From an uncultured Microthrixaceae bacterium (GTDB lineage: Bacteria; Actinomycetota; Acidimicrobiia; Acidimicrobiales; DATDAH01), in assembly GCA_963777805.1 (NCBI GenBank), contig CAVZRY010000012.1, positions 112,704 to 176,703 on the forward strand: a DNA stretch of 64,000 bases, given 5' to 3'. Positions 24,483 through 50,430 of this stretch are shown here, in pieces. The stretch's first letter is position 1; each line of letters opens with the position of its first letter. Under the pieces are notes generated by a model. That model ran no database searches and had not been told where the DNA came from. It worked only from the letters and a program-made list of their open reading frames with translations. The position numbers and the translations under genes were made by a program.

Positions 24483-24836
24483 GTGGCGGAACGGTTTTCC
24501 CCCGAGTGGATCACGGCGATGGATGCCGCGGTCCGCGCCCTGCCGGCGACCGACGCCGCCTTCGTCGTGCAGCAGGTGGTCACTGATCGTGACGGCGAGG
24601 ACGCCTGGCACCTCGTGCTGGGGCCCGAGGGCGTTCGGGTGCACCCCGGGCGGGCCGAGGCGCCCGACGTGACCTTCTCCCAGGACCGGGCGACGGCGAA
24701 CGCCATCGCGGACGGCGAGCTGAGTGCCGGCGCGGCGCTGACCGCTGGTCGGCTCACGGTGCGGGGCGCGACGGCCCGGCTGACCGACCACCGGGAGACC
24801 CTGGCCCGGATCGACGAGGCCTTCGCCAATGCCTGA
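24483..24836 (+). CDS. SCP2 sterol/lipid-binding domain protein
   Basis: FSPEWI..VVQQVVT..PDVTF..D.ATA.AIA.GEL..GRLTVRG. Confidence 0.8.
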   Translation: MAERFSPEWITAMDAAVRALPATDAAFVVQQVVTDRDGEDAWHLVLGPEGVRVHPGRAEAPDVTFSQDRATANAIADGELSAGAALTAGRLTVRGATARLTDHRETLARIDEAFANA

Positions 24837-25667: not shown

Positions 25668-25695
25668 GACGTGACGCTCTGGCGTGGGGCTGGGG

Positions 25696-25960
25696 GAACG
25701 AGACCGAGGCAACCACGGGGGCCTGGCTCTTCCTGCCGTGCTCGTCGGCGCCCGAACGGGTCTTCTCGCCACCCTCCGTGGCGAACCGCGGTCGAATCGG
25801 CCCGTTCGCCGGCCCCGATTCGTTCTGGCACCGGATCCTCCGGCTATGACCCGCAAATCCGGTGCCAGAACGGGAGGTGGCCACGCCGAGTGAGTTCGGC
25901 GGCAGTTCTGCCCCCGACGGCCTCCGGCCCGTCCCCACGCCCCCATCCCTGCCTTCGGTT
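25696..25960. repeat. Composite intergenic element A: arm > REP-like hairpin < arm
   Basis: Arm 25696-25752(+); 16-bp stem CGTTCTGGCACCGGAT/ATCCGGTGCCAGAACG at 25821-25872; arm 25909-25960(-). Confidence 0.75.
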
Positions 25961-25996
25961 GCGGTGTCCGGTGTCGGTGTCGGTCCCCGGTAGGGC

Positions 25997-26983
25997 TCAG
26001 ATGAGGCCGAGGCCGGCGACGGTGTCGCGCTCGTCGGCCAGCTCGCCGTTGCTGGCGTCGATGCGGGTGCGGGAGAAGTCGTCGATCTCGAGGTCCTGGA
26101 CGATGCTCCACTCGCCGTCGGCCGTGGTGCACGGGAACGACGAGAGCAGGCCCTCGGGGGTGCCGTAGGAGCCGTCGGACGGGATCGCCATGGACACCCA
26201 GTCGCCTTCCGGGGTGCCGTCCATCCAGGTGCGGACGTGGTCGATGGCCGCGTTGGCCGCCGAGGCGGCGCTGGAGCTGCCCCGGGCCTCGATGATGGCG
26301 GCTCCTCGCTGCTGGACGGTGGGGATGAACTCGTTCTCGATCCAGGCCTCGTCGCCGATGACCTCGGTGGCGGGGCGCCCGCCGACCTTGGCGTGGAAGA
26401 CGTCCGGGTACTGGGTCGCAGAGTGGTTGCCCCAGATGGTCATGCGGGTCACGTCGGTGACCGGGACGCCGGCCTTGGCCGCCACCTGGGCCAGGGCCCG
26501 GTTGTGGTCGAGGCGGGTCATCGCGGTGAAGTTCTTCTCGGGTAGCCGGTCGCAGTTGTTCATGGCGATGAGGCAGTTGGTGTTGGCCGGGTTGCCGACG
26601 ACGAGGACCTTGCAGTCGTCGCCGGCGGCGGCGGACAGGGCCTTGCCCTGCACGGTGAAGATGGCCCCGTTGGCCTCGAGCAGGTCGGCCCGCTCCATGC
26701 CCTTCGAGCGGGGGCGGGAACCCACCAGGAGGGCCACGTCGGCGCCCTCGAAGGCGGTCTCGGGCTGGTCGCTCATGACCATGCCCGCCAGCAGCGGGAA
26801 AGCGCAGTCGTCCAGCTCCATGGCCACGCCCCGGAGGGCGTCCATGGCCGGCGGGATCTCCAGCATCTGGAGCTGGACCGGCTGGTCCGGGCCGAGGAGA
26901 TCGCCGTTGGCGATGCGGAAGAGGAGGCTGTAGCCGATCTGGCCGGCGGCGCCGGTCACGGCTACTCGAGTGGGGGATGCCAT
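25997..26983 (-). CDS. mdh: Malate dehydrogenase
   Basis: [54 protein letters not shown]. Confidence 0.97.
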
Positions 26984-27027
26984 GCCTCGCACGCTACCGA
27001 CGCGGTCGGCGGCGGGGCGAACCCGGC

Positions 27028-28713
27028 TCAGCCCCCGTCGGGCGTCCGCCGACGGCTCCTCGCCGAAGCCCTCGATCTCGCCGGGCCCGGCGGGCGGGGG
27101 CGGCAGGAGGGAGAGGAACTCGTGGATGAGGGGGGCGGCCACCTCGCCGCCGACGCCGCCGCCCTCGACGACCAGGGCGTAGGCCAGGTCGCCGATGAAG
27201 CCGGCGAACCAGGCGTGGGTCTCGGGCGGGTCCTCCTCGCCGAACTCGGCGGTGCCGGTCTTGCCGCCGATGTCCCGGCCGAGGATGGCGACGGCCTGGC
27301 CGGTGCCGGTCCGCACGACCTCCCGCAGGAACTCGGGCAGGTGCTCCCGGGCCGCCTCGGGCAGCTCATGGCTGCCCTCGGCCGGGGGCTCGCCGCTGAG
27401 GTAGGGCGGGCGCCAGGTGCCGTCGTAGGCCGCGGCGGCCACCGTGGCCATGTGCAGCGGGCGTGACCGAGACCCGACCCTGGCCGATGGACGCCGCCCC
27501 GGTCTCGGTGTCGGACTCCGGCAGGGGGAACGAGCCGAACTCGGTCGGCACCCCGAGGTCGTAGGCCTGGTTGAACCCGAAGTACTCCGCCGTCTCGAGC
27601 AGCCGGGTCGGCCCGAGCTGGTAGCCCAGGTTCACGAAGGTGGTGTTGCAGGACTTGGCGAAGGTGTCGATGAAGGGGAGGTCGCCGTAGTCCTCGCCGA
27701 AGGCGTTGGTGAAGGGGGCCGAGTCGCCCGGACGGGTCTCGTAGGGACAGGGCAGGACCTGGTCGGGCTCGGTGCCCGCCGCGAGGGCGCCGGCGGCGGT
27801 GACGATCTTGAAGGTGGAGCCCGGGGCGTACTCCCCGAGCAGGGCCCGGTCGAAGCCCGACGGGTTGTTGGCCACGGCCCGCACCGCGCCCGGTGCGGCT
27901 GTCGATGGCCACCAGCGCCACCGGCAGGGCGACGTCGGCGATGGCGTCCTCGGCCGCCCGCTGGGTGGCGTAGTCCAGGGTCAGCACCAGGGGCTCGGGG
28001 CGCTCGCCCCCGAACTCGTGGACCACCTCGACCGGCCGACCGGCGACATCGACCACCTCGATGCGCCCGGTGGGGTCCCCGGCCAACTGGTCCTCGTAGC
28101 CGGCCTCCGCCCCGTCGGCGCCCACCAGGTCACCGGCGGCGTACTCGAGTCCGAGCTGGGCCGCCTCCGCCGCGCTCAGCTCCCGGAGCTGGCCGACCAG
28201 GGCCCCGGCCAGTTCGTCCTGACGGGGCCCTTCGCCCGGGCCACCTACGGCCAGGGGCTGGCCGCCATCGGCCACGATCGCGGCGCGCTGGCCCTGGGCC
28301 CGCGTGCGCTGCAGGTGGGTCCCGTCGGTCAGCGCCGGATGCAGCGACGCCGGTGAGAACGCCACCCGCCACTCCCCGTCGACCTTCGTGAGATCGAGGG
28401 CGCCGTCGTAGGCCCAGGGGCCGACGCCCTGGAGGCCGAGCTCGGCCCGGAACGACGCGGTGGCCTGGTCGCCATCGGTCTCGACCTCGACATCGCTGGC
28501 CGCCGCCCGCACGACCTGGAGCCCGGTGCGAAACGCTTGCTGCTGGGTGGCGAAGTCAGCCGGCGGATCGGCGACCAGCGCGCTCATCGCGTCCACGTCG
28601 CCGGCGGCCCATGCGGTCAGGTAGTCCTCGGCTGCCGTCTCGGCGGCCGAGCCGCCGTCACCCCCGTCGCTGAGGACCGAGCACGAGGGCACGACGACGA
28701 GCGCGACGACCAC
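27028..28713 (-). CDS. Penicillin-binding protein (transpeptidase with MecA-like N-terminal domain), frameshifted
   Basis: PGSTFK (SxxK), SCNT (SxN), GKTGTAE (KTG); putative lipoprotein signal. Confidence 0.88.
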
Positions 28714-28776
28714 CGTCGCCGCCCAACGCCACCGTCCCTCGTGTCGCCCCAGCCCGCGCTCCTGATCCGCTCGGGA

Positions 28777-30216
<1,440 letters not shown>

Positions 30217-30485
30217 GGGATCCCCCTGTAGGTCGTCAGTGCAGTTCGTCTGCGCTTCGGGTAGCGGCGCGACGGTACTCGTGCCACTGACGATCGCGTC
30301 AGTCAGCCACCGCCAACGAGCCCGGGCCATGGCCACGACGGCACCGAGGCCCCCATCCGCCGTCACCGCACTGCGCTGACTGTCGGGCCGCTCCTACCCC
30401 GGAACCGGTATCTGCGACCAGGGTCTTCGATCGCCCTCCACGGGGCAGGTAGTCGTCGGGAAGACGACACCCCAGGGGGTTCCCC

Positions 30486-31323
30486 ATGAACGACCGATCC
30501 GAACGACCGACCCGAGTCCACCGCGAGACGGCCCGAGAAGCGGGCTTCGGCACGCTCTCGCCGCTCAGCGTCCTGGCCGGCGTGCTCTGCGCCTACGGGG
30601 CCTTCGCCATCGTGGCCGCCATCGTCGGCGCCGCGCTGGCGGCGGCCGACGTCAACACCGAGTTCCGCAGCAACGACTGGACCGGCAGCGGTGCGGTGGC
30701 CTCGCTGGCCAGCGCCGCCGTCCTCTTCATCGCCTACCTCTTCGGGGGCTATGTCGCCGGACGGATGGCCCGCCGGGCCGGGCTGCTGCACGGCGCCCTG
30801 GTGTTCGTCGTGAGCCTCATCGTCGGCGGCGTCGCCGGTGGCGTGGTCAGTGCGTTGGCCGACAACAACGACGTCGAGAACAACCTGCGCAGCATCGGCG
30901 TGCCCACGAGCATGGACCAGCTCACCGAAGTGGCCGTCGCCGGGGCCATCCTGTCCCTGGTCGCCGTGCTCGTCGGCTCGCTCCTCGGCGGGACGCTGGG
31001 TGAGCGTTGGCACACGAAGCTGGCCCGCCGGGTCGCCGATCCCGAGATCGGGACCACGGCTGACGAGCGGGCCCGCCTCGAGGCCGAGGAAGCCGACCGT
31101 CGGACCCGGCTCGACAACGATGACGCCCTACGGCGCGACGTCGACAGCCGAGGTCACGACCTCCGAGCCGGTGATCGTCGGACGGACGCCGCTCGTCACC
31201 CGTCCGGTCGACACCGACGACGGCGTCGACCGTGACCAGAACGTCGACCTGCGGGACGACGAGCCCCGCCTCACCGAGTCCGAGTGGCGCGAGCGGGAGC
31301 TCAGCCGGACCGACCGCAGCTGA
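30486..31323 (+). CDS. Hypothetical membrane protein (about 4 TM, charged C-terminal tail; frameshift near 31170)
   Basis: AYLFGGYVAGRMARRAG, LGGTLGERWH. Confidence 0.7.
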
Positions 31324-31336
31324 TCGCGGGTCAGCC

Positions 31337-31374
31337 CGAGAACCGTCCCGGCAACGACGCCGGGACGGTTCTCG
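31337..31374. terminator. 16-bp perfect hairpin between convergent genes
   Basis: CGAGAACCGTCCCGGC-aacgac-GCCGGGACGGTTCTCG. Confidence 0.7.
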
Positions 31375-31403
31375 CCGTCTTCTGCGGCCATCGCCGGCGT
31401 GGG

Positions 31404-33320
31404 TCAGTCGGCCAGGTCGGGGAGGTCCCGGTAGTGGTCGAGGGCCTCGGGGTTGGCGAGGGCCTCGACGTTGCGGACGACCTCGCCGTGGATCACGGCC
31501 CGGACGGCGAGCTCGGTGATCTTGCCGCTGCGGGTGCGAGGGATCTCCGGCACGGCCACGACCTTGGCGGGGACGTGGCGGGGGGTCGTGTTCTCCCGGA
31601 TGCGGCGGCGGATGCGGTCCCGGAGGTCGTCGTCGAGGACCTCGCCCTCCCGGAGCACCACGAAGAGGACGATGCGGGTGTCGCCCTGGTGGTCCTGGCC
31701 GACCGCCAGGGCCTCGGCCACCTCGGGGACCTGCTCGACCTGCCGGTAGATCTCGGCGGTGCCGATGCGCACACCGCCGGGGTTGAGGGTGGCGTCGGAC
31801 CGGCCGTGGATGACCAGGCCCCCGTGCTCGGTCCAGGCCGCGAAGTCGCCCTGGTGCCAGGCGCCCGGGATGCGCTCGAAGTAGGCCCCGCGGTACCGGC
31901 TGCCGTCGTCGTCGCCCCAGAACCCGAGGGGCATGGACGGGAACGGGGTGCGGCAGACGAGCTCCCCCTTCTCCCCCGGCGGCAGCGAGCTGCCGGCGTC
32001 GTCGACCACGTCGATGTCCAGGCCGAGGGCGGGGCGCTGGATCTCCCCCCGCCACACCGGGCTGGTCGGATCGCCGGCGACGAGGCAGCCACACAGGTCG
32101 GTGCCGCCGGAGATGGAGGCCAGGTGGACGTCGGCCTTCACGTGGTCGTAGACGTAGTCGAAGCCCTCGGGGACGAGCGGCGAGCCGGTGGAGGTGATGG
32201 TCCGCACCGAGGTGAGATCATGGGTCGCCCTCGGGTCCAGGCCCGACCGGTCGAGAGCGTCGATGAACTTGGCCGAGGTGCCGAACAGGGTCACGCCCTG
32301 CTCGTCGGCCAGGTCGAACAGCGTCGACGGGGGATGGGACGGCGAGCCGTCGTAGAGGACGAGCGTGGCCCCTGACGCCAGGCCCGACGCCAGCCAGTTC
32401 CACATCATCCAGCCCGCGGTCGTGAAGTAGAAGACCCGATCGCCGGGGCGCACGTCGCAATGCAGCTGGTGCTCGACCAGGTGCTTCAGCAGCACCCCAC
32501 CGGTGCGGTGGACGATGGCCTTCGGCTTCCCCGTGGTGCCCGACGAGTAGAGGACGTACCAGGGGTGGTCGAAGGGGTACCGCTCCGGCGTGAGGGCGCC
32601 ACCGACGTGCGCGGCGAGGACGTCGGGCCAGGCGTCGGTCCCCGCCGGGGGCTCGGCGCCGAGATACGGCACGACGATCGTCCGGCGCAGGCTCGGCAGG
32701 CCGGCCCGGATCTCGGCCAGCCGGGGCAGGCAGTCGTTGGCCCTGCCGCCGTAGACATAGCCATCCGCGGCGACGAGGACGGTGGGCTCGACCTGACCGA
32801 AGCGGTCGAGGACACCCGCCGTGCCGAAGTCGGGAGACGTGGAGGAGAAGGTGGCGCCGACCGCCGCCGTGGCCAGCATGGTCACGATCGTCTCGGGGAT
32901 GTTGGGCAGCCAGGCCGCCACCCGGTGGCCCGGTCCCACCCCGGTCTCGGCCAGCGCGGCGGCGAGGGCCGCGACCTGGGACCGGAGCTCGTCCCAGCTC
33001 AGGGTGCGGCGCCGGCCGTCTTCTCCGGCTTCGATCAGCGCCGGACCGCCGCCGGTCGTGGCCAGAAAGGTCTCGACCACGTTGAGCCGGGCGTCCGGGA
33101 AGAAGCGGGCGTCGGGCAGGGTGGCACCGGGCACGAGGGCTGTGGCCCCCCGCTCCCCCACCAGCCCGCAGGCGTCCCAGGCCGCGGACCAGAACGCGCC
33201 CGGGTCGGCGACCGACCAGGCGTGCAGCGCCTCGTAGCCGTCGTGACCCTGGTCCCGGGCGAAGGCGGCGAGCCGACTACCGGCGGCGCGCTCCTCCGAC
33301 GGCGTCCAGATCGCGCTCAC
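31404..33320 (-). CDS. Acetoacetate-CoA ligase (acetoacetyl-CoA synthetase)
   Basis: FFPDARLN, YSSGTTGKPK, GWMMWNW, SISGGTD, GRSDATLNPGGVRIGTAEIY, NVEALANP. Confidence 0.93.
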   Translation of the reverse strand: MSAIWTPSEERAAGSRLAAFARDQGHDGYEALHAWSVADPGAFWSAAWDACGLVGERGATALVPGATLPDARFFPDARLNVVETFLATTGGGPALIEAGEDGRRRTLSWDELRSQVAALAAALAETGVGPGHRVAAWLPNIPETIVTMLATAAVGATFSSTSPDFGTAGVLDRFGQVEPTVLVAADGYVYGGRANDCLPRLAEIRAGLPSLRRTIVVPYLGAEPPAGTDAWPDVLAAHVGGALTPERYPFDHPWYVLYSSGTTGKPKAIVHRTGGVLLKHLVEHQLHCDVRPGDRVFYFTTAGWMMWNWLASGLASGATLVLYDGSPSHPPSTLFDLADEQGVTLFGTSAKFIDALDRSGLDPRATHDLTSVRTITSTGSPLVPEGFDYVYDHVKADVHLASISGGTDLCGCLVAGDPTSPVWRGEIQRPALGLDIDVVDDAGSSLPPGEKGELVCRTPFPSMPLGFWGDDDGSRYRGAYFERIPGAWHQGDFAAWTEHGGLVIHGRSDATLNPGGVRIGTAEIYRQVEQVPEVAEALAVGQDHQGDTRIVLFVVLREGEVLDDDLRDRIRRRIRENTTPRHVPAKVVAVPEIPRTRSGKITELAVRAVIHGEVVRNVEALANPEALDHYRDLPDLAD

Positions 33321-33384
33321 CTCCGCGTTCTTACCCGGATTGTGGTCGTGGGGGCGACCAGGATCCGGGGGAGAACCGGATCAG

Positions 33385-33846
33385 TCAGTCCTCGACCTCG
33401 TCGCGGACGACCAGGACGGGGCAGGGGGCGTGACGGACGAGGTGGTCCGAGACCGAGCCGAGCAGGGCCCGCTTGATGGCCCCGTGGCCCCGGGAGCCGA
33501 CGACCACGACCGTGGCCTCGACCTCCTCGGCGAACAGCATCAACTCGACCCCGGGTTCCCCCAGGAGCACCTGGGTCTCGAGCCCCGGCTGGTCCAGGGC
33601 CGCCACCGCGGCCTGCACGACGGCCTCACCCTCCTCGGAACGGACCTCGTTGAGCTCCTGGAGCTGCTCAGGGGAGAGGGCGCCACCGGCCATGCCCGAC
33701 ACCCCGCTGACGAGGGTCGGGTTGCCGCCCTCCACGACCGTCACCACGATCGTGCGCCCACCCGGGGCCAGTCGGGCGAGACCGGTGGCCGCCGCCCCGA
33801 TCGCATGCTCGGATCCGTCCACGCACAGCAGCACGACCTGGTCCAT
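33385..33846 (-). CDS. Universal stress protein
   Basis: VDGSEHA..VVVGSRGHG..LLGSVSDHLVRHAPCPVLVVR. Confidence 0.93.
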   Translation of the reverse strand: MDQVVLLCVDGSEHAIGAAATGLARLAPGGRTIVVTVVEGGNPTLVSGVSGMAGGALSPEQLQELNEVRSEEGEAVVQAAVAALDQPGLETQVLLGEPGVELMLFAEEVEATVVVVGSRGHGAIKRALLGSVSDHLVRHAPCPVLVVRDEVED

Positions 33847-33873
33847 GGACCGAGTCTGCCCGGTGGGGCGGAG

Positions 33874-35077
<1,204 letters not shown>

Positions 35078-35199
35078 AGGGCCAGGAGGCTACCGGCCGG
35101 GGTTTGCCGTAAGGGACGCTGCGAGCGGAGCGCAGCAGCTTTGCCGATGATGCCGATAGCTGCCGTAGGCAGCGGAGCCGCGGCAGGCGGCGACCATGT

Positions 35200-36057
35200 T
35201 CAGAGGTTCAGCTCGGCGAGGACGGCCAGGGCGGCGTCGGACCGGTTGAGGGTGAAGAGGTGGATGCCGGGGGCGCCGGCGGCGAGGAGGCGCTCGGCGA
35301 CGAGGGTCCCGATCTCCACGGCGACGTCCACGACCGCGGCCTCGTCGTCACCGGCGGCCTCGAGGCGCTCGACGATGTCCTCGCCCGGGAGCTTGGACTG
35401 GTTCATCGCCGACATCCGGGTCAGGCCGCCCAGGTTGCGGAAGAGCATGATCCCGGGCAGGACCGGCGTGTGGCAGCCGAGGTCGGCCAGCTCCTCGACC
35501 ATGAGGAGGTGGTCGTTGGGATCGAAGAAGAAGTTGGTCACGCCGAAGTCGGCCATCATCAGCTTCTCGGCCAGCCGGCGGCGGTCGGACTCGGCGTCGG
35601 GTGACCGGGGGTGCAGCTCGGGCTGGGCGGCCACCCCGATGGAGAAGTCGGCGCCGTGGGCCCGGATGACCTCGACCAGCTCACAGGCGTAGGCGAACTC
35701 GCCGCCGGCCTCGCTGCCGTCGGCGGGCGGGTCGCCACCGAGGGCCAGGATGTTCTCGACGCCGGCCTCGGCGTACTGGTCGAGGAGCTCCTTGACCTGG
35801 TCGTGGGAGTGCCCGATGCAGGTCAGGTGGGCCATGACCGGGAAGTCGTTCTCCCGGTTCATGTCGATGACCAGCTCGGCGGTCAGGTCCCGGGTGCTGC
35901 CCCCGGCCCCGTAGGTGACCGACATGAAGCTGGGATTGCTGGGCGCCAGTTCGGCGACGGCCTGCTTCAGATTGTCGATGCCGACGGGGGTCTTGGGCGG
36001 GAAGAACTCGAAGGAGATCGTCCGGCCCTGCGCCAGGAGGTCAGAGATCTTCGCCAT
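35200..36057 (-). CDS. metF: Methylenetetrahydrofolate reductase
   Basis: SFEFFPPKT, SVTYGAGG, AHLTC, LALGGD, GIHLFTLN. Confidence 0.93.
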   Translation of the reverse strand: MAKISDLLAQGRTISFEFFPPKTPVGIDNLKQAVAELAPSNPSFMSVTYGAGGSTRDLTAELVIDMNRENDFPVMAHLTCIGHSHDQVKELLDQYAEAGVENILALGGDPPADGSEAGGEFAYACELVEVIRAHGADFSIGVAAQPELHPRSPDAESDRRRLAEKLMMADFGVTNFFFDPNDHLLMVEELADLGCHTPVLPGIMLFRNLGGLTRMSAMNQSKLPGEDIVERLEAAGDDEAAVVDVAVEIGTLVAERLLAAGAPGIHLFTLNRSDAALAVLAELNL

Positions 36058-36070
36058 GTTGCCTCGGAGG

Positions 36071-36931
36071 CTACCGACGCGCTCTGCGCTCGGCGGCCTC
36101 GACGGTGTTCACGAAGAGCATGGCCCGGGTCATGGGGCCGACCCCGCCGATGCGGGGCGAGAGCCAGCCGGCCACCTCAGCCACCTCGTCGGCGACGTCG
36201 GAGACCAACTTCTTGCCTGCGAAGCTGACCCCGGCGGCGACGACCGCGGCCCCGGGCTTGACCATGTCGGCGGTGATCATCCCCGGCGCGCCGGCCGCGG
36301 CGACGAGGATGTCGGCCTGCCGGGTCAGGGCCCCGATGTCGGCGACCCCGGTGTGCACCACGGTGACCGCGGCGTTGGCGTCGGGGCGCTTGAGCGAGAG
36401 CAGGTTGGCCAGGGGTCGGCCGATGGTCAGGCCCCGGCCCACGATCACCACGTGCCGGCCGCTGATGGGCACGTCGTAGTGGACCAGGAGGCGCTGGATC
36501 CCGTGGGGCGTGCAGGGCAGCGGGCCGTCGGTGCCCATGACCAGCTTGCCGAGGTTCACCGGGTGCAGGCCGTCGACGTCCTTGGCCGGGTCCACCCGCA
36601 ACAGGTGGGCCTCGTAGTCGAAGCCCTTCGGGAACGGGTACTGGCAGAGGTACGCATCGACGGCTGGGTCCGCGTTCCACCGGTCGATGACGGCGTCGAT
36701 CTCGGCGGGGTCGACGTCGGCCGGGAGGTGCTCGTCGAACGAGGCGATGCCCAGCTCGGCGGCGTCCCGGTGCTTCATGGCCACGTAGTTCGCACTCGGC
36801 CCGTCGTCGCCCACCAGCAGCGTCCCGAGCCCGGGCGTGACGCCCTCGGCCTTCAGGGCGGCGATCCGGGTGGCGAGATCGGCCTTGATCTCCGCCGCGA
36901 CCGCCTCCCCGTCCAGCACGATCGCCGTCAT
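36071..36931 (-). CDS. folD: Methylene-THF dehydrogenase/cyclohydrolase
   Basis: YVAMK, KDVDGLHP, PCTP, VGRGLTIGRP, GGVGPMT; GAGGAG Shine-Dalgarno. Confidence 0.95.
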   Translation of the reverse strand: MTAIVLDGEAVAAEIKADLATRIAALKAEGVTPGLGTLLVGDDGPSANYVAMKHRDAAELGIASFDEHLPADVDPAEIDAVIDRWNADPAVDAYLCQYPFPKGFDYEAHLLRVDPAKDVDGLHPVNLGKLVMGTDGPLPCTPHGIQRLLVHYDVPISGRHVVIVGRGLTIGRPLANLLSLKRPDANAAVTVVHTGVADIGALTRQADILVAAAGAPGMITADMVKPGAAVVAAGVSFAGKKLVSDVADEVAEVAGWLSPRIGGVGPMTRAMLFVNTVEAAERRARR

Positions 36932-36953
36932 GTTCCGCTCCTCGAGCCGGACG

Positions 36954-37207
36954 AACCGAAGCAGGGAAGGGGGCGAATCGCCCCGCGCCGACCTCCGTTC
37001 TGCCCCTCCACCCTCGTTCTGGCGCCTGATCTTCCGGCCATAGGCGGCAAATCGGGCGCCAGAACGAGCTGATTCCGTTCTGGCGCCTGATTTCCCGGCC
37101 ATAGGCGGCAAATCGGGCGCCAGAAGGGCTGGAGCGGGGCGCAGAAAGCGTTCGGGCGCCACCGAGCCGAGGCCCGCCGTGCCGGCCCCCATCTCTGCCA
37201 TCGGGTT
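36954..37207. repeat. Composite intergenic element B: arm > two tandem REP-like hairpins < arm
   Basis: Arm 36954-36975(+); near-identical hairpins at 37013-37068 and 37075-37127 (TTCTGGCGCCTGAT-N20-ATCGGGCGCCAGAA); arm 37185-37207(-). Confidence 0.8.
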
Positions 37208-37224
37208 GCGGTTCGTGGTGGGCA

Positions 37225-38721
<1,497 letters not shown>

Positions 38722-38727
38722 GGTCGG

Positions 38728-39317
38728 TCAGGGTCCTTCGGGTTCGGGGGGTGGCAGGGTGAGGTCGCCGGCGACGACGGCGGCGACGGTGTCCGGGTAG
38801 AGGCGACGCTCGACGGCCTTGATGCGCTCGTGGAGGGAGTCGACGGTGTCGCCCGGGAGGACGCTGACCGCCTCCTGGGCCACGATCGGCCCGGCATCGA
38901 CCTCGAGGGTGGCCACGTGCACCGTGCACCCGGTGACCTTCACGCCGTAGGCCGAGGGCGTCGGCGCACGCCGTGCCAGCCGGGGAACGAGGGCAGCAGG
39001 GCCGGATGGGTGTTGAGGATGCGGCCGGGGAAGGCGTCGAAGACCGGTTCGGCCAGGATCGTCCCGAACCCGGCCATGGCCACCAGGTCGACCTCCGCCT
39101 CGTGCAGGACGTCCACGATCTCCTTGGAGTAGGCGACCCGGTCGAACCCCGGTCCGAAGTCCTCCCGCTCGACGACGACGGCGGTGATCCCCGCTCCAGC
39201 GGCGATGTCGACCGCCCCGCACGGACGATCGACGACGACCACGACGACCGGCAACGAGCGGTCGACCATGGCGTCGAGGATGGTCCCACTCCCCGAGGCC
39301 AGCACGCCGATCCGCAC
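38728..39317 (-). CDS. purN: Phosphoribosylglycinamide formyltransferase (frameshift near 38960)
   Basis: [36 protein letters not shown]. Confidence 0.94.
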
Positions 39318-39433
39318 GCTCGGAACCTACCGCGCGACACCGCGCGCGGCCTGCGGTCGCCGAGGTCGCGCATCGGCGCTCCACGGTGGTCTAGGTTGCG
39401 TTCGCACCTCTACACGTAGCACCGGGAGACAAC

Positions 39434-39937
39434 GTGGATCTCAACAAGCTCACAACGGGCGACAAGCTGATCGCCGGGTCGACCATCGGCCTGTTCATCT
39501 TCTCGTTCCTGCCGTGGTTCAAGGTCTCGGTGGACGGCGCCGGAGTGTTCGGCGGCTTCGAGGAGAGCATCAGCGGCTGGGACGTCGGCTTCCTCTGGGG
39601 CCGCTTCCCGTTGTTCCTCGCCGTGTTGATGGCGGCGTACGTGGGGATCAAGGCCTTCTCGCCGGACACCAAGCTGCCGACCCTGCCCGTGGCCTGGGGC
39701 CAGGCCCTGCTGGGCGTCGGCTGCCTGTGCGCCTTCCTGGTCATCCTCAAGCTGCTGCTCGGCGAGGACCTCAGCGTCCCCGGCGGCCTCGAGGGCACCG
39801 GGGTCGAGGTGAGCCGTTCCTACGGCCTCTTCCTCTCGGTGATCGCCACCGTCGGCCTCGCCGTGGGTGGCTTCTTCAAGATGCAGGAGGGCGACGACGA
39901 CACCAGCGGCGGCGGCGCTCCCCCGACGACCTTCTGA
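39434..39937 (+). CDS. Hypothetical membrane protein (about 4 TM)
   Basis: 167 aa, FSFLPWF motif, GGAG Shine-Dalgarno, terminator downstream. Confidence 0.8.
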   Translation: MDLNKLTTGDKLIAGSTIGLFIFSFLPWFKVSVDGAGVFGGFEESISGWDVGFLWGRFPLFLAVLMAAYVGIKAFSPDTKLPTLPVAWGQALLGVGCLCAFLVILKLLLGEDLSVPGGLEGTGVEVSRSYGLFLSVIATVGLAVGGFFKMQEGDDDTSGGGAPPTTF

Positions 39938-39953
39938 TCATCACGCTCTGACC

Positions 39954-39985
39954 ACGGCCCCGTCGCCTCCGGGCGGCGGGGCCGT
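39954..39985. terminator. GC-rich hairpin between convergent genes
   Basis: ACGGCCCCGTCGCC-tccg-GGCGGCGGGGCCGT. Confidence 0.7.
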
Positions 39986-39993
39986 TGCGCGCC

Positions 39994-40884
39994 CTACAAG
40001 CTGGCGACGACCTCGGCCATGAGCTCGCCGGCCTCGGTGGGGTTGTTGCCCACCTGGGCACCGGCGCCTGCGCAGGGCCTCCATCTTGGCCGCGGCCGTG
40101 CCCTTGCCGCCGGAGACGATGGCGCCGGCGTGGCCCATCTTCTTGCCCGGCGGGGCGGTGACCCCGGCGATGTAGGCGACGACCGGCTTGGTCATCGGCG
40201 CGGCGATGAACTCGGCCGCCTCTTCCTCGGCCGAGCCGCCGATCTCGCCGATCATCATGACGGCCTTGGTCTCGGGGTCGGCCTCGAAGCGCTCGAGGCA
40301 GTCGATGAACAGGTGCCCGGGCACGGGGTCGCCGCCGATGCCGACGCAGGTGGTCTGGCCGATGCCCTGCTGCGTCAGCTCGTGGAGCGCCTGGTAGGTG
40401 AGGGTGCCGGAGCGGCTCACGATGCCCGACCGGGCCGCCGCCCATGGCGATCTCGCCGGCGGTGATGCCGATGTTGCACTTGCCCGGGGCTGATGATGCC
40501 GGGGCAGTTCGGGCCGAGCAGCTGGACGCTCGGGGTAGTCCCGCTTCAGCACGTTGAAGAACCGGGCCTCGTCCTGGGCGGGGACGCCCTCGGTGATGAC
40601 CACGATCAGCTTCGACGCCGCCCTCGGCCGCCTCGAGCACGGCGTCCGCGACGCCCGGGCGCGGGGATGAAGATGCACGACGCGTTGGCCCCGGTCTCGG
40701 CCACCGCCTCGGCCACGGTGGCGAAGACGGGGATGCCCTCGACGTCGGTGCCGGCCTTCTTCGGGTTGGTCCCGGCCACCACCTGGGTGCCGTACTCCCG
40801 GTTGCGCAGGCCGTAGAAGCGGCCCTGCGAGCCGGTCAGGCCCTGGTACACGACCTTGGTGTTCTCGTCGACGAAGATCGCCAT
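39994..40884 (-). CDS. sucD: Succinyl-CoA synthetase alpha subunit (frameshifted)
   Basis: [45 protein letters not shown]. Confidence 0.95.
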
Positions 40885-40887
40885 CGA

Positions 40888-42034
40888 TCAGGCCCCCTCG
40901 GCGCGAGGGCGACGACGGCGGCGCGGCCTCGAGCATGGTCGGCTGCGGAGATCAGCGTTCTCGGAGGCGTGCTCGGCCAGGATGGCCCGCCCCTCCTCGG
41001 CGTTGGTGCCGTCGAGGCGGATGACGATCGGCGAGCTGATCTCCACCCGACCCAGCGCCTGCACGATGCCGTTGGCCACCTCTTCGCCCCGGGTGATGCC
41101 CCCGAAGATGTTGATGAAGATGGACCGCACCTTCTCGTCGTTGTTGATGACCTCGAGGGCGCCGGCCATCACGTCGGCGTTGGCGCCGCCCCCGATGTCG
41201 AGGAAGTTGGCGGGGCTGCCCCCGACCTGGCTGACGACGTCGACGGTGCTCATGGCCAGGCCGGCGCCGTTGGCGATGATGCCCACGGTGCCGTCGAGGC
41301 CGACGTACTGCAGGCCCTTGTCGTGGGCCGCCTGCTCCCGCTCGTCGCGGACCTGGGTGGCCTCGTACTCGTCCCACTCGTGGCGGAAGGCGGCGTTGTC
41401 GTCCAGGGTCACCTTGGCGTCCAGGGCGTGGACCCGGCCGTCCGGGGTGAGGATCAGCGGGTTGATCTCGCACCAGGTCGGCGTCCCCGTCGGTGAAGGC
41501 GGTGTAGAGCTTGCGGAGGATGTCGACTGCGCCCTCGGTGGCGTCGGGGTTCAGCTTCGCGGCCTCGACCCAGGCCCGGGCATCGGCCTCGCTGAGGCCC
41601 TCGGCCGGGTTCACGTGGATCTTGGCGATGGCGTCGGGGTTCGTGTCGGCCACGTCCTCGATGTCGACCCCGCCCTGGGCGCTGAGCATGCCGAGGTGCT
41701 GCTTGGCCGAGCGGTCGAGGGTGAAGCTGGCGTAGTACTCCTCGGCGATGTCGGAGGCCGCCTCGATCCACACGATCTCGACCGTGTGGCCCTTGATGTC
41801 CATCCCGAGGATGGCGGTGGCGTGCTCCCGGGTCTCCTCGGCGTTGTTGGCCAGCTTGATGCCGCCGGCCTTGCCCCGGCCGCCCACCTGGACCTGGGCC
41901 TTCACCACGACCGGGTAGCCGAGGCGCTCGGACGCGGCCACGGCGTCGTCCACCGTGGTCACGGCTTCACCCGCACTCACCGGTATGGCGAAGGACGCGA
42001 AGAACTGCTTGCCCTGGTATTCGAAGAGATCCAC
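40888..42034 (-). CDS. sucC: Succinyl-CoA synthetase beta subunit (frameshifted)
   Basis: [54 protein letters not shown]. Confidence 0.95.
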
Positions 42035-42097
42035 GGCCGAGCAACCTAGTGAGCGACTCCTGTGTGCCCGAAACCGCCCGGTACGGTCAGGGGCCTC

Positions 42098-42592
42098 ATG
42101 AGCCGGGCAACCCTGTGGATCCTGGGCGGGATCTTCGCCGTCGTGCTGGCCATCTGCGTCGTCGGCGCCGTGCTGATCCTCGCCACCCAGGATTCCGAGG
42201 TCGACGTCAACCTGGGCGACGACGAGTTCGAGATCGAGGAGATCGAGGCCCGGGCCGCCCTGGTGGCCGAGGAGGGGGCCCTGCGCTTCGCCGATCCCAC
42301 CGGCGGCAACCGTCCGATCATCGTGAACCACGTCGGCGACGACCCCGAGACCGGTTGGGTGGCCGTGCTGGCCGTCGCCCCCGGCACCGACGGCTGCATC
42401 GTGGACTGGGACAACGACGACGGCGTCTTCCGGGACTGCGAGGGCACGACCTACCCGCCCGACGGCGAAGGCCTCGACCAGTTCCCCACCCGGGTCGAGG
42501 ACGACACCCTCTACGTCGACCTCGGCCGCGGCCGCGACGACGAGCAGGCCCCCGAACCCGACGACACCATCCCCGTCACCGGCGAGGATTGA
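42098..42592 (+). CDS. Membrane-anchored protein with a degenerate Rieske-like domain
   Basis: N-terminal TM; GCIVDW..GVFRDCEGTTYPPDG..LDQFPTRVEDDTLYVD resembles the Rieske fold but lacks the CxH/CxxH ligands. Confidence 0.65.
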   Translation: MSRATLWILGGIFAVVLAICVVGAVLILATQDSEVDVNLGDDEFEIEEIEARAALVAEEGALRFADPTGGNRPIIVNHVGDDPETGWVAVLAVAPGTDGCIVDWDNDDGVFRDCEGTTYPPDGEGLDQFPTRVEDDTLYVDLGRGRDDEQAPEPDDTIPVTGED

Positions 42593-42954
42593 ACGACACT
42601 GAAACCGAAGCAGGGATGGGGGCGTGGGGTCGGGCCGAGGCTCGTCGGGGGCATGTCGGCCGTCGGGCCGGATGAACGACACCGACGGCAACCACGGCGG
42701 CCGTGGGGTCGCGGCCGAGGGTCGTCGGGGGCGCCATCGACCTGTTCGGTTCCCCGATCTCACGCCCGGTGGTCGACCCGTCGTGCTCGAGGCAATACCT
42801 TGCGGATTTCGCCAGGTATTGCCTCGAGGTCGGCAGTATCCACCCAATGCGGTCCGGAAATGGCGCCCTTGGTCACGGAGGGTGACGAAACAGGCCTCGA
42901 GTGCCCCCGACGACCGGCGGCGCGACACCACGCCCCCGTCCTTGCCTCGGTTTC
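42591..42954. repeat. Composite intergenic element C: arm > arm > hairpin < arm
   Basis: Arms 42591-42653(+), 42674-42732(+) and 42902-42954(-); 15-bp stem CTCGAGGCAATACCT/AGGTATTGCCTCGAG at 42786-42828. Confidence 0.8.
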
Positions 42955-42962
42955 GGTCGGGC

Positions 42963-43965
42963 TCAGCCCGCGGGCGTAGGGGTCCCAGGCCACGGGCGCG
43001 GTCGACAGGTGCCGGGTCAGCCGCTCGAGCACCTGGGCCCGCTCCAGGCCGGACTCGGCGCCGTCGACCAGGCCCAGGCCGGCGCCAGCTCGCCGGGCGG
43101 CTCGGCGAACCAGCGGGCTGAGCCCGGCTCGGCCGCGGTGAGCTCGTCGGCCAAGGGGGCCAGGTCGACGCGGGCCTTGGGTCGGCGGGAGCGGTACTGG
43201 ACCCAGGTCTCATACCGGTAGGTGAAGCGGTAGCGACGGCCCCGCACCACCAGGAGGGCGAAGCGGTCCGTGGCGTTGTTCACCGCCATCGGATGGATGT
43301 CCTCGAAGGCCCGGTGGCTGAACCGGTGGCCGGTCCAGTGCTGATCCGGATCGGCGAAGTCGACGATCGCCAGGTCGACCTCCGGCTGCTCGGAGACCTG
43401 CACGACGCCCGAGGCGATGGCGGCCTCACTGTCGGTCAACGCCCGGTCCTCGTCCTCCCAGAGGTCCTTCACCCGGTCCGGGTTCGCGACCAGCTCGGGG
43501 AGCCGACCGAGCAGCTCCCGGTAGAGGTCGGCGTCGGGATCCTCCGCCAGCGGGGCGACCGGCGACCGCTCCGCGTCGGCGAACGCGTGCACGACCATCG
43601 ACAGGCGGGCGGCCTCGCGGAACCGGTAGGTGCCGAAGTCCCCGGCCGCGGCCAGGTCCTCGAGCAGGGTCCGGTGGGCCAGGGCGTGATCCGGCGCGCT
43701 GAGGGCGTGGACGGCGACCAGACCGTCCTGGTCGAAGTGGTTGTTGGTGACCAGCTCGGCGTCGCCGTGGAGGTCGGCGCCCCGGTCCAGGTAACGAAAG
43801 GCCATCTGGGCCGACAGATCGGCCTCGGTGTCCGCCGGCGCAGTCGATGCCGGGCCAGTGGGTCAGGCTCAGGACGGTGCCGGGGTTGGGGGAACCGTCG
43901 ACGACGACGTTGGGGCGGTCGACGGTGGCCTCATAGGCCTCGAAGCGCAGTGGGGTCGGGGACAT
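42963..43965 (-). CDS. Conserved hypothetical protein (DUF6687-like), frameshifted
   Basis: NVVVDG..LSLTHWPG, VTNNHFDQDG, AAAGDFG, YRYETWVQY. Confidence 0.7.
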
Positions 43966-44012
43966 CGGCCGGACGGTACGACCTCAACCCCACTCGAGGT
44001 CAAGGGCCGCTC

Positions 44013-45518: not shown

Positions 45519-45563
45519 ACAGCGACAGTACCCACCGGCCCCCCCGCCGATGCCGGTCGGGGG

Positions 45564-46049
45564 CTACTGGATGAAGCTCCCACCCGATGGATCGGGCGGC
45601 TGGAGGCTGGGATCCCCGAACTTCGGCACCGGGGCCTGCTCGGTCGGCATCGGTGTGGTGTACGGGACCGGGGCCCCGGGAGCCGTCGGGACGCCGGGCT
45701 GGGCCATGAAGGCGGCGCTGGTCGCCCCGAGGTTCGCCGAGGCGCCGAACATCGATCGCATGCCGCCCTCCATGGACTTGAACCAGCGTCCGATCCAGAC
45801 GAACAGCGCGGCCATCGGCAGGAAGGTGATGACGAAGATCCAGGCCGTCAGCTGCACGCCCTCGGAGTCGACGATGGCGTTGACCGCGGCGTCCTGGCCG
45901 AAGGTGTCGTCGGGCACCCCGGAGCGGTCGAGGATCTGTTCGGCGAACCACTCGTCCGCATCGGGGACCACCGCGATGGCCAGCGCCCCCAGCCCGATGA
46001 TCAGGAACAGGACCGCGGAGATGTACATGGACCACTTGCCGATTGCCAT
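45564..46049 (-). CDS. Hypothetical 2-TM protein with Pro-rich tail
   Basis: 161-aa ORF with two hydrophobic segments and GC3 bias. Confidence 0.7.
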   Translation of the reverse strand: MAIGKWSMYISAVLFLIIGLGALAIAVVPDADEWFAEQILDRSGVPDDTFGQDAAVNAIVDSEGVQLTAWIFVITFLPMAALFVWIGRWFKSMEGGMRSMFGASANLGATSAAFMAQPGVPTAPGAPVPYTTPMPTEQAPVPKFGDPSLQPPDPSGGSFIQ

Positions 46050-46115
46050 GGCGCCATGAGACCACGATTCGGGGGGCCGTGACGTGAGTAGCCGCTACTC
46101 AATCCGGCGGTTCGC

Positions 46116-48335: not shown

Positions 48336-48373
48336 CCGCTCACCCTACCGACGGGGTGCGACGCCCCACGGAC

Positions 48374-48427
48374 CCCTTCTGGCGCCCGATTCGGTCGTCC
48401 TGGCGACCGAATCGGGCGCCAGAAGGG
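48374..48427. repeat. Stand-alone REP-like hairpin (24-bp perfect stem)
   Basis: CCCTTCTGGCGCCCGATTCGGTCG-tcctgg-CGACCGAATCGGGCGCCAGAAGGG; same ends as the hairpins in elements A and B. Confidence 0.8.
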
Positions 48428-48433
48428 ACGAGC

Positions 48434-49323
48434 ATGCGACGGCCTCACCGAGTGCAGCCGTTAGCGTCGCCGACCGTGGCTGACGGCCGGATCGCTCGCG
48501 TCCGAGCGCGGGTCACCGAAGGCGTGGAATGGGCGGCGACGACGGCGTGGCGGCCGGTCGTGATCGCCCGGGCGGTCTACGAGCGGGACCGGGACATCGG
48601 TGGCGGTCTGCTGGCGGGGGCGCTCGCCTTCCGACTGTTCGTCTGGCTGGCCGCGTTCGTCGTGGTCCTCGTCGCCGTCCTCGGCTTCATCGACGCCGCC
48701 GGGGGCAACGCGGCTGCGGCGTTGAGCGACGGGGGCATCACCGCGATCGCGGCCAGTCAGGTCAGCGAGGCGGCGTCCGACGCTCGTCAGGGACGCTGGA
48801 TCCTGCTGGTCGTCGGTCTGTACGCCCTGTTCTCCACCAGCCGCACGATGGTCCGGGCCCTGTGGACCTCCAGCCAGATCGCCGCCCGTCTGCCCGTGAC
48901 CAAGCCCCCCGTCCTCAAGGGGGTGCTGGCCTACAACGGGATCCTGTTCCTGCTCTTCGGCACCATCGCCGGAGCCGGCCGCCTCCGGGACGCCACGCCG
49001 GGGCCGGGCCTGCTCATCACCATCGCCTCCGTGGCCATCTTCGTCGCTCTGTCCTGGCAGGCGCTGCGCTGGCTCCCCGGCCCCGACCTCGCCCCTCGCG
49101 ACCTCCTGCCCGGCGCCGTCCTGCTGGCGGTCGGCCTGCACCTGATGCACCTGGTGGGCACGCTCTACCTCCCCGGCCGGATCGAGCGGGCGTCGGACAC
49201 CTACGGCACCTTCGGCACGGCCATCGTGCTGCTGCTGTGGCTCTACCTCTTCGGCCGCCTGATGATCGCGGGCGGCATGCTGAACGACACGATGCGCCAG
49301 CTGCGCGAGGACGAGCCGAATGA
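48434..49323 (+). CDS. YihY/virulence factor BrkB-family membrane protein
   Basis: GGLLAGALAFRLF, LLPGAVL, TYGTFGTAIVLLLWLYL. Confidence 0.8.
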
Positions 49324-50262
49324 GCACCGCACCATCCCGTTCCGCTTCGGCGTCCAAGCGTCGGGGCCGACGACCGCCGGCGAGTGGGCGGAGCTGGCCC
49401 GCAAGGTCGAGGGCCTCGGCTACTCGACCCTCACCTGCGCCGACCACCTCGACGAGCAGTTCGCCCCGATCCCGGCATTGACGGCCGCCGCGTCGGCCAC
49501 GACCACCCTCCGGGTCGGCGCCATGGTCCTGGCCAACGACTACCGCCACCCCGTGCTCGCGGCCAAGGAGGCGGCGACCCTGGATGTGCTGAGTGAGGGT
49601 CGCTTCGAGTTCGGGCTCGGCGCCGGGTGGATGACCACCGACTACGAGGCGGCGGGCATCGCCCTCGACCCGCCGGGGCGCCGCATCGACCGGCTCCAGG
49701 AGGCGATCACGATCGTGAAGGGCCTGTTCGCCGACGGGCCGGTCCACTTCGAGGGCGAGCACTACCGAGATCACCGGCCTCGAGGGCACCCCCAAGCCGG
49801 TCCAGCGGCCCCACCCGCCGATCGTCATCGGCGGCGGCGGGCCCCGGGTGCTGGCCTTGGCCGCGCCGCGAGGCCGACATCGTGGGCATCAACGTGAACC
49901 TGGCCGTCGGCGTGATCGACGACCGGGCCGGTCCGAACGCCACCGAGGAGGCCACCCAGGCCAAGGTCGACATCATCCGCGAGGCCGCCGGCGACCGCTT
50001 CGACGATCTCGAGCTCCAGGTCCGGGTCCACGCCGTGGTGGTCACCGACGACCGCCAGGGCATGGCCGAGCTGATGGCGCCGGCCCTCGGCATCTCCCCC
50101 GCCGCCGCCCTGGCCAGCCCCCACGCCCTGGCCGGCTCCCCCGAGGAGATCGCCGCCGACCTCCTGGCCCGGCGGGAGCGCTGGGGCATCAGCTACATCA
50201 CCGTCTCCCTCGACGCCCTCGACGCCATGGCCCCCGTCGTGGCGCGGCTGGCCGGGACGTAG
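49320..50262 (+). CDS. LLM-class, probably F420-dependent, oxidoreductase (frameshifted)
   Basis: PFRFGV, GYSTLTCADH, NDYRHP, LSEGRFEFGLGAGW, RRERWGISY. Confidence 0.88.
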
Positions 50263-50308
50263 TCGACGGGCTGGGGCCGGCGGGACGGTTCGGCTCGTCG
50301 GGCTGAGG

Positions 50309-50430
50309 GAAATGAGGCAAGGAAGGGGGCGTGGGGTCGGGCTACTGCTCGGCGGCGGCACGCCGGTCCTCTCAATCCTGAATTGCGCCGATTCGTAGCG
50401 CCAGGCGCTACAGATCGGCGCCAGATCAGG
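50309..50430. repeat. Partial composite element D: one arm plus a degenerate hairpin
   Basis: GAGGCAAGGAAGGGGGCGTGGGGTCGGG arm at 50309-50360; imperfect hairpin 50377-50430 ending ATCGGCGCCAGA. Confidence 0.65.

Follow-up and report, generated by a model that had tools for sequence, protein, structure and literature searches.

The 64,000-nucleotide stretch of DNA analysed here (the window, from whose first letter positions are counted unless a contig is named) comes from the draft genome of an uncultured Microthrixaceae bacterium and carries, in the spaces between its genes, four copies of a modular repeat, elements A, B, C and D. Their G-rich arms accompany hairpins, some of which resemble repetitive extragenic palindromic (REP) sequences. 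A preliminary description of the window had located eight arms in these four regions, around one hairpin in A, two in B and an unrelated one in C. On reading the sequence and aligning the arms, we find the four regions, all eight arms and the cores just where and as it had placed them. The features that concern the repeat are listed below, with arms scored either by profile 1, built from the eight window arms, or by profile 2, rebuilt from 112 genome-wide matches.

25665–25667, plus strand: stop codon of the Fpg-like gene left of A, frameshifted (Pfam)
25668–25996: element A in full, filling the spacer between the stop of the Fpg-like gene and the stop of a malate/lactate dehydrogenase gene
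25686–25783, plus strand: left arm of A with the short CCAC-N5-GTGG hairpin, G-tracts partly lost (profile 2, E = 4.2e-9)
25821–25870: central type-1 REP-like hairpin of A, CTGGCRCC...GGYGCCAG (repeat grouping)
25879–25962, minus strand: right arm of A (profile 2, E = 4.9e-14)
25997–25999, minus strand: stop codon of the malate/lactate dehydrogenase gene right of A (Pfam)
Ending at 36931, minus strand: ATG of folD, flanking B (Pfam)
36932–37224: element B, in tandem context, in the purH/folD spacer
36953–37017, plus strand: left arm of B, degenerate (profile 1 only, E = 1.4e-5)
37015–37064 and 37076–37125: two tandem type-1 hairpins of B, 96% alike (repeat grouping)
37143–37206, minus strand: right arm of B, degenerate (profile 1 only, E = 7.1e-7)
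37225–37227, minus strand: stop codon of purH, flanking B (Pfam)
42590–42592, plus strand: stop codon of the unnamed 164-amino-acid gene left of C
42593–42963: element C, between the unnamed 164-amino-acid gene and a DUF6687 gene
42595–42666, plus strand: first left arm of C (profile 2, E = 1.9e-14)
42657–42746, plus strand: second left arm of C, in tandem with the first at about 83 nucleotides (nt) start to start (profile 2, E = 7.9e-8)
42786–42828: central type-2 hairpin of C, CTCGAGGCAATA... family (sequence)
42870–42962, minus strand: right arm of C with the short hairpin (profile 2, E = 6.4e-21)
42964–42966, minus strand: stop codon of the DUF6687 gene right of C, placed here with the sequence from this point on conserved in congeners
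48375–48424: stand-alone type-1 hairpin without arms, of the same core family as the cores of A and B, 68% to the reference
50296–50375, plus strand: solo arm of D, between two unnamed genes and after the stop codon of one of them at 50260–50262 (profile 2, E = 1.9e-12)
50385–50422: GC-rich hairpin of D after the solo arm, with no right arm (sequence)

These copies belong to a large family. The genome searched (G000) is a draft of 4.21 Mb in 31 contigs, with 72% G+C and 71.75% marker completeness. Profile 1 gave 217 genome-wide matches at E < 10, among which the recovery of its own eight arms is circular. With profile 2 the number of matches was 205 at E < 1, falling to 189 at E < 0.01 and to 177 at E < 0.001, whereas the reversed genome had none, so that the profile scan suggested by the preliminary description puts the family far above its control. 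Six of the eight window arms are recovered by profile 2; both arms of B are degenerate and pass profile 1 only, which is circular. A repeat search independent of the profiles pairs 42583–42653 with 42902–42972 (71 nt, 77% complementary) and 25897–25952 with 42610–42665 (56 nt, 82%). The inward-facing layout of the outer arms, first noticed in the window, likewise holds across the genome, where 65 pairs of a plus arm followed by a minus arm lie less than 400 nt apart and span 134–446 nt in total, 49 of them measuring 270–320 nt. Arms form 108 loci in G000, laid out as plus-minus (55), plus alone (25), minus alone (14), plus-plus-minus (7) and other arrangements (7, including plus-minus-minus and a few larger arrays).

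Aligning the 49 copies of 270–320 nt shows the full element to be an imperfect palindrome of about 290 nt. From the outside inwards it comprises a G-rich arm of about 55 nt, a short CCAC-N5-GTGG hairpin, an exchangeable central REP-like hairpin and the mirror image of the same parts. The arm proper contains a nearly invariant GGGGGCGTGGGG block, preceded by a variable pentamer of the GGGAT or ACCAC type and followed by a CGTCGGGGGC block. Some copies additionally carry an outer CGTCGGGC module headed by CGTC or GTAG plus GGGC; of the 189 arms, 48 have it, the head being CGTC in 28. With 174 matches against 81 in the control, mostly in coding sequence, this module was rejected as a repeat family of its own. 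Besides the paired form, arms occur singly and in tandem, and in one minimal copy both arms abut with no core between them.

Two further observations concern the arms. Three-arm tandem arrays with a period of about 73–83 nt were seen in two congeners, G006 (contig C9:2050515-2050716, and again at site D) and G007 (contig C8:536463-536672), indicating that the arm unit is capable of local amplification, as the doubled left arm of C also shows. Runs of ACCGAC/CACCGA-like hexamers often lie at the outer arm edges (for example at 25960–25990), and because run length differs between copies and between orthologs, slippage is suggested as the source of the variation.

Arm loci are concentrated where genes converge. 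Since the assembly is frameshifted and gene calls based on open reading frames (ORFs) covered only 65% and 70% of the genome, the coding strand of the flanks was called by a frame-independent codon-periodicity test, checked on six window genes. Among the 108 loci, 65 are convergent, 18 tandem, 1 divergent and 24 ambiguous, which makes 77% of the loci with clear context (65/84) convergent. As a baseline, the 3673 adjacent gene pairs divide into 622 convergent (17%), 621 divergent (17%) and 2430 tandem (66%; binomial p = 8e-34). The single divergent locus is a copy interrupted by an insertion sequence (IS). Nearly all arms, read in their own orientation, have a stop codon 0–60 nt upstream; some copies use the TAG of the outer module as the stop codon of the flanking gene. 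Elements usually occupy the entire spacer between the two stop codons of convergent genes.

Gene models in this draft show several irregularities. ORF-based gene calling ran a false ORF through element B, the Fpg-like gene (24829–25667) shifts frame two times in a span of about 150 nt, contig C4 has a CoA-transferase gene broken into two parts, and a penicillin-binding-protein fragment is fused to the mdh ORF at 25997–27451. Such frameshifts and split or fused genes, together with a completeness of 71.75% at 4.2 Mb, point to many assembly indel errors rather than real pseudogenes.

The central hairpin forms a separate repeat family. The type-1 hairpin is present in 164 copies in G000 against 28 in the reversed control, with an inner length of 28 nt in 146 of 158; arms flank 44 of the 164 copies on both sides and 20 on one side, whereas the other 100 are without an arm within 200 nt. 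Its family is also present in congeners that lack the arm family, for example G001, and 75 of the 137 type-1 hairpins with clear context lie between convergent genes. The two halves co-vary: complementarity of the distal stem is 0.753 within hairpins and 0.581 between them, and none of 5000 permutations reaches the observed value. The type-2 hairpin at the core of C has 25 copies in G000 against 0 in the control. REPs and bacterial interspersed mosaic elements (BIMEs) have as their unit a short imperfect palindrome of 20–40 bp. In the present family the central hairpins, of about 44–50 nt, are palindromic, and the arms neither are palindromic nor share a consensus fold.

The arm family was found in a single uncultured Microthrixaceae genus only and arose within it. 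A strict pattern of 29 letters with at most two mismatches, whose backwards control is 0 everywhere, matches 78 times in G000 and 1, 0, 39, 4, 27, 65, 20, 3 and 0 times in nine congeners (G001 to G009), with no match in 8 sister-genus genomes or in 23 from other families of the same order. Similarly, a sequence-only covariance model of the arm, for which the best 150 candidates were scored per genome, counts at least 147 arms in G000, at least 142 in G006, 89 in G003, 73 in G005, 47 in G007, 20 in G008, 11 in G004, 2 in G001 and none in G009 or G002, and none in the 8 sister-genus genomes. When one genome per GTDB species was searched for the exact 20-letter core, 48 of the 80 matches listed came from four metagenome-assembled genomes (MAGs) named 'uncultured Microthrixaceae bacterium'; the other 32 among the matches listed are single matches in assorted high-GC genomes and are taken as chance. 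Public runs containing 42000–43400 are labelled as sludge, activated-sludge or wastewater metagenomes. A full-text literature search, partly judged by title or abstract, found no such repeats described for Microthrix, Microthrixaceae or Acidimicrobiia.

Comparison of orthologous sites among the congeners reveals occupied, decayed and empty states. Arms are present at site A in G000, G003 (two loci), G006 and G008, and in G007 with a different core; the site is degraded in G005 and holds a hairpin without arms in G001. Empty orthologous sites, for which the preliminary description had proposed to look, exist here, with only 9 nt (G004), 4 nt (G009) and 4 nt (G002) between the two stop codons. 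Site C has arms in G000, G005, G006 and G007, with four different cores, an interior deletion in G003 and only a hairpin in G008 and G001; no empty ortholog of C was seen. The core of C in G005 is the same hairpin as in G000, with a distal stem that has changed yet is still complementary. At site B, arms and two hairpins are found in G000, G006, G003 and G005 and hairpins only in G001 and G007, and purH and folD almost abut in G009. At site D, G000 and G003 have the solo arm, G007 has a full element and G006 has a 600-nt array of five arms, two left and three right, whereas G008 and G004 lack the arm. Cores of at least two families are exchanged inside the arms, and the 'interchangeable core' of the preliminary description was an apt term.

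A local tree of the 1.79-kb flanks of site A (a single locus, rooted at the midpoint) joins G000, G003, G005, G006 and G008 in one clade, all occupied, and places G002, G009 and G001, which have no arms there, outside it. The occupied G007 groups with G004, whose 9-nt spacer resembles the outer module. Per-genome arm counts follow the same order as this tree. The element at site A is vertically inherited in the sub-clade, and its distribution is consistent with a single old gain followed by vertical descent and decay, with one more gain or loss. The site-A region is present twice in G003, on contigs C1 and C13, with identities to G000 of 90% and 86%. One of the two copies is at the start of a contig, and the doubling reflects either a duplication or two strains mixed in the assembly.

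The copies are old, the family has no recent copies and its spread is historical. Over at least 150 nt, identity to the best paralog of a pair is 76% in the median and at most 81.5% (62 of the 65 pairs have such a match), and orthologs between species are 79–90% identical over element and flanks.

No mobilising partner of the family came to light. In the window, a Pfam scan of 28 of the 49 predicted ORFs of at least 240 nt found no transposase, in agreement with what had been noted from the letters, and occupied and empty orthologs at A, B, C and D show no recognisable target-site duplication, a trace that old copies could have lost. Inward-facing arms 3.7–7.6 kb apart (two cases in G000, one in G006) enclose housekeeping genes, among them thiolase, CoA-transferase, glyoxalase, ArsR, amidohydrolase and YkuD genes and the like. 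Across arm pairs 1.4–7.6 kb apart and collections of plasmids and phages, no autonomous IS with the same ends was found, and the plasmid and phage collections hold no match to the arm family.

Several transposase families were considered as partners and rejected. Two arm pairs 1.44–1.47 kb apart on contig C28 enclose IS256-family copies whose inverted ends are unrelated to the arms; these copies sit between the right short hairpin and the right arm, and a third copy (C28:533272-534651) has no arms. The preliminary description had suggested looking for an enzyme of the REP-associated tyrosine transposase (RAYT) or HUH type flanked by the same arms, and none was found: PF01797 (Y1_Tnp) occurs in one of the ten genomes, G000, where the sole gene has unrelated 21-nt inverted repeats of its own, and in none of the nine congeners (genomes 56–96% complete). 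The TnpB zinc-ribbon family was found in none of the ten genomes. IS110 is present in five of the ten, absent from the three arm-richest and most frequent in the arm-free G002.

Two of these loci have further features. Between about 7100 and 10460 on contig C28, two diverged IS256-family copies (about 85% identical) lie in opposite orientation, each at the same position inside an arm-bounded element, which reflects either a duplicated composite or IS targeting of the element. The Y1 gene, at C3:292438-292767, encodes a RAYT-like transposase of 236 amino acids near a contig end, beside transposase-like ORFs; this stretch may be foreign DNA or a binning contaminant, its low GC content being judged only from the look of the predicted proteins.

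As RNA, the elements are predicted to fold strongly. The 49 canonical elements have a mean minimum free energy of -180 kcal/mol against -146 for shuffled sequences (mean z -7), with both strands alike. The fold of A reaches -178 kcal/mol (z -2.65) and that of the minus strand of B -165.9 kcal/mol (z -5.14). Within elements, which variant (GGGAT or ACCAC) the left arm has is independent of the one in the right arm.

Sequence constraint was examined in nine ortholog pairs at six sites, four of the pairs sharing element A. Columns with at least 80% consensus among the 49 paralogs were taken as family-conserved. Changes between G and C were compared because third codon positions in a GC-rich genome are held by composition, which G<->C changes keep. 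The classes of positions compare as follows.

Conserved columns: identity 85.8% (670/781); all mismatches 12.1%; G<->C changes per G/C site 0.049 (29/587)
Intermediate columns: identity 68.1%; all mismatches 28.4%; G<->C 0.152
Variable columns: identity 53.7% (733/1365); all mismatches 39.6%; G<->C 0.165
Flanking coding sequence: identity 88.3%
Third codon positions in the flanks: all mismatches 15.9%; G<->C 0.124 (82/660)
First and second codon positions: all mismatches 6.8%; G<->C 0.032

The G<->C rate at conserved columns is thus 2.5 times below that of third positions (Fisher p = 3e-6), and it also differs from that of variable columns (p = 7e-12). These rates suggest that the arm and stem motifs are under sequence-specific constraint.

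There is also a weak hint that element C is transcribed. Contigs from RNA libraries of activated sludge (four runs, two studies) were found over 41800–43800, one of which, at 42559–42612, spans the junction from gene to arm. Others span the two left arms of C (42605–42711) and its interior (42688–42887, with 5 differing letters).

We favour the reading, with a probability of roughly 0.55, that A–D belong to a genus-restricted, REP/BIME-like mosaic repeat that probably serves as a two-way 3'-end structure, with the arms as sequence-specific sites. RNA polymerase arriving from either side would copy a G-rich arm and the hairpins first and the C-rich arm last. On the folding model, the transcript could form a hairpin of about -180 kcal/mol with no U-tail, and such a folded transcript would hinder both read-through and 3' exonucleases. 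By analogy with what has been proposed for REPs, the element may then be a two-way terminator or insulator as well as a stabiliser of mRNA 3' ends. According to a 2026 preprint (bioRxiv 10.64898/2026.03.23.713779), a model Escherichia coli REP is partly a Rho-dependent terminator and also an mRNA stabiliser, and REPs between convergent genes go with higher expression of both. The arms would be putative sites for a sequence-specific factor acting on DNA or RNA; because they are conserved in sequence without co-varying with their partners, such sites are more likely than mere halves of a stem.

Several results weigh against this reading. Arms are found at only about 10% of convergent gene pairs (65/622), so the element is dispensable at most junctions. 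Arm-to-arm complementarity, measured in those 40 canonical elements (out of 49) in which the arms could be anchored, is 0.680 within elements and 0.679 between them, the observed value being reached in 2221 of 5000 permutations, and selection on the long stem thus finds no support. Mismatches of core hairpins in tandem contexts show no G·U bias on the transcribed strand (29 versus 27 and 23 versus 22), which likewise leaves selection on the core hairpins at the RNA level without support. Of the three T-tailed terminator sites in 25000–44000, none lies in A, B or C. As to constraint, the ortholog pairs that share element A are not independent, the total mismatches at conserved columns (12.1%) are only modestly below those at third positions (15.9%, p = 0.03), and gene conversion among copies could yield the same rate differences. 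The RNA-library contigs show neither ends, strand nor level and may include DNA, and their depth over the arms is inflated by paralogs. Finally, with many frameshifts and the best ORF gene calls at 70% of the genome, the gene contexts rest on codon periodicity.

Three other explanations compete with the 3'-end reading. The family could be a dead and selfish one, resembling miniature transposable elements with inverted repeats (MITEs) or the RAYT-mobilised REP doublets known as REPINs, that is functionless, has lost its transposase and survives mainly between convergent genes because it is harmless there. Its inverted arms and small size agree with this, as do the spread from 0 to at least 140 copies among congeners, the occupied beside empty orthologous sites and the decayed, internally deleted copies in G005 and G003. 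Moreover, no pair of copies exceeds 81.5% identity, the median best paralog stands at 76%, and arms of the same element resemble each other no more than they do those of other elements, as if copies decayed independently from one master. Against a selfish origin, however, the four compared sites lack a target-site duplication and no parent was found, the widely spaced inward arms enclosing only housekeeping genes and the IS256-family copies being nested insertions with unrelated ends. Y1_Tnp was found in none of the nine congeners and TnpB in none of the ten genomes, and IS110 counts do not track arm counts. Neutral decay does not predict the 2.5-fold lower G<->C rate of conserved columns relative to third positions, and different cores within retained arms at one orthologous site, together with solo and tandem arms, make a poor fit to a single transposing unit. 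We consider it possible, if somewhat doubtful, that the family is of this kind.

Alternatively, the arms might be DNA sites for a chromosomal protein acting where convergent transcription meets, such as a topoisomerase or gyrase or a nucleoid protein, with the hairpins incidental. E. coli BIMEs bind gyrase and IHF. Arm sequence is conserved without partner covariation and without internal structure, the conserved columns are constrained between species, convergent enrichment is extreme (65/84) and the hairpins show no G·U strand bias, all of which would suit DNA-level recognition. On the other hand, no candidate protein was identified, just some 10% of convergent junctions bear arms, and congeners with 0–2 arms manage without them, so we hold this explanation to be decidedly improbable. 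The last explanation, a structured non-coding RNA or G-quadruplex (G4) in which the arm folds alone or forms a G4 in the 3' untranslated region as a regulatory RNA, is very improbable indeed. It draws on the G-rich arms being sense with respect to the gene that reads into them, on the four G-tracts of some arms and on the RNA-library contigs that cover arms. However, RNAalifold returned no consensus structure for 112 aligned arms on either strand, and the Rfam scan of the whole window gave no match, with just two chance miRNA matches at E > 1 around C. Canonical G4 motifs with loops of 1–7 nt are present in only 39 of 189 arms, for which reason the G4 was rejected as the defining feature; with loops of 1–12 nt the count is 85 of 189. 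Conservation is as high in loop letters, for example CGT, as in the G-tracts. Solo arms in tandem contexts are antisense as often as sense (4 versus 3). The structured RNA element entertained in the preliminary description is accordingly not borne out, with neither arm-to-arm covariation nor a fold within one arm; its statement that the arm was not recognised from known families stands as far as Rfam is concerned.

A bolder claim is that the arm is a domesticated, selected recognition site for a putative DNA- or RNA-binding factor marking the meeting points of convergent transcription, and not a decayed transposon end. We think this unlikely. Were it true, the factor could be a termination, anti-collision or topology factor, the hairpins would turn over freely inside the arms, and the family would be a REP-like system whose function lies in a non-palindromic 55-nt module and not in the palindrome.

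The family adds a well-defined REP/BIME-like repeat from an uncultured genus of activated-sludge Acidimicrobiia. It is valuable for the contrast that nature provides among congeners and for the hint that a non-palindromic module is under constraint. Since congeners range from 0 to at least 140 copies, orthologs are occupied, decayed or empty and no RAYT was found, it offers a natural test case for the role of repeats at gene ends and for how RAYT-less repeats spread. In practical terms, such strong hairpins can break assemblies, mislead gene callers into long false ORFs and seed false calls of 'terminal inverted repeats'.

Compared with the REPs and BIMEs of Enterobacteria and Pseudomonas, the family is alike in combining high-copy extragenic GC-rich palindromes with other conserved motifs in mosaics. 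It exceeds the 100 extragenic copies per genome by which high copy number is judged (189 arms and 164 type-1 hairpins in 4.2 Mb), and its mosaic character is evident from the 65 modular pairs, the mixed layouts and the exchange of at least two core families. Like them, it lies after gene ends, in convergent or tandem and almost never divergent contexts (65, 18 and 1 of 84), often abutting stop codons. Tandem amplification of units, insertion of IS elements and presence that varies among relatives are further shared traits. In contrast, the conserved unit here is a non-palindromic G-rich arm of about 55 nt that always faces inward, in place of their palindrome of 20–40 nt, the convergent bias is much stronger (77%), no RAYT accompanies the family and the host belongs to the Acidimicrobiia. 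A GTAG or CGTC head with an adjacent stem of 8–9 bp, by which REPs are defined, is absent as such: the 48 of 189 arms that have the outer module, 28 of them with CGTC, have no adjacent short stem-loop.

A further comparison is with the CGTC-tagged REP super-family (Di Nocera et al. 2013, PMC3733652), a paper whose text makes no mention of Actinobacteria. In that text, REPs are found mostly between unidirectional and convergent ORFs, with the convergent ones under 20 bp away from the ends of both ORFs, and the TAG stop codon can come from the end of a REP. Members of the super-family, as described there, are mostly head-to-head dimers near the 3' ends of both convergent ORFs, as here, and some arms of the present family also start with CGTC or GTAG followed by GGGC, the TAG of which can be the flanking stop codon. 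Unlike theirs, the present arms lack the 8–9-bp stem with A/T first positions, the 4–5-nt loop and the CCA tail that the same text gives, and the tag occurs in a minority of arms.

REPINs resemble the family in having a spacer bounded by two inverted units, which together fold as a long hairpin, and in occurring in many copies, all of them intergenic. They are mobilised by RAYTs, however, which are missing from nine of nine congeners, and in the present family the spacer is about 170 nt long and modular, the paired units show no shared history and there are no young copies. With bacterial MITEs such as the Correia elements of Neisseria, and with the enterobacterial repetitive intergenic consensus (ERIC) or intergenic repeat unit (IRU) sequences, the family shares a length of 130–450 nt, inverted ends, an imperfect palindrome, transcribed intergenic locations, internal insertion and deletion variants and the coexistence of occupied and empty sites. 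Terminal inverted repeats and small size, which characterise MITEs, are present here in the inward arms and in pairs of 134–446 nt. The family differs from these in showing no target-site duplication and no IS with shared ends, in arms that are also single or in tandem arrays, and in cores swapped at orthologous sites.

The preliminary description had called the elements a BIME/REPIN/MITE-like mosaic. Of this label the BIME-like part stands, the repeat being high-copy, genus-restricted and modular with exchangeable cores; the REPIN part falls with the lack of a RAYT, and the MITE part with the lack of target-site duplication, parent and near-identical copies. BIME-like is the best supported of the labels then offered. 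Since the tagged short palindrome, the RAYT, the target-site duplication and the parent IS all fail, we file the repeat as a new REP/BIME-like family and not as any named one.

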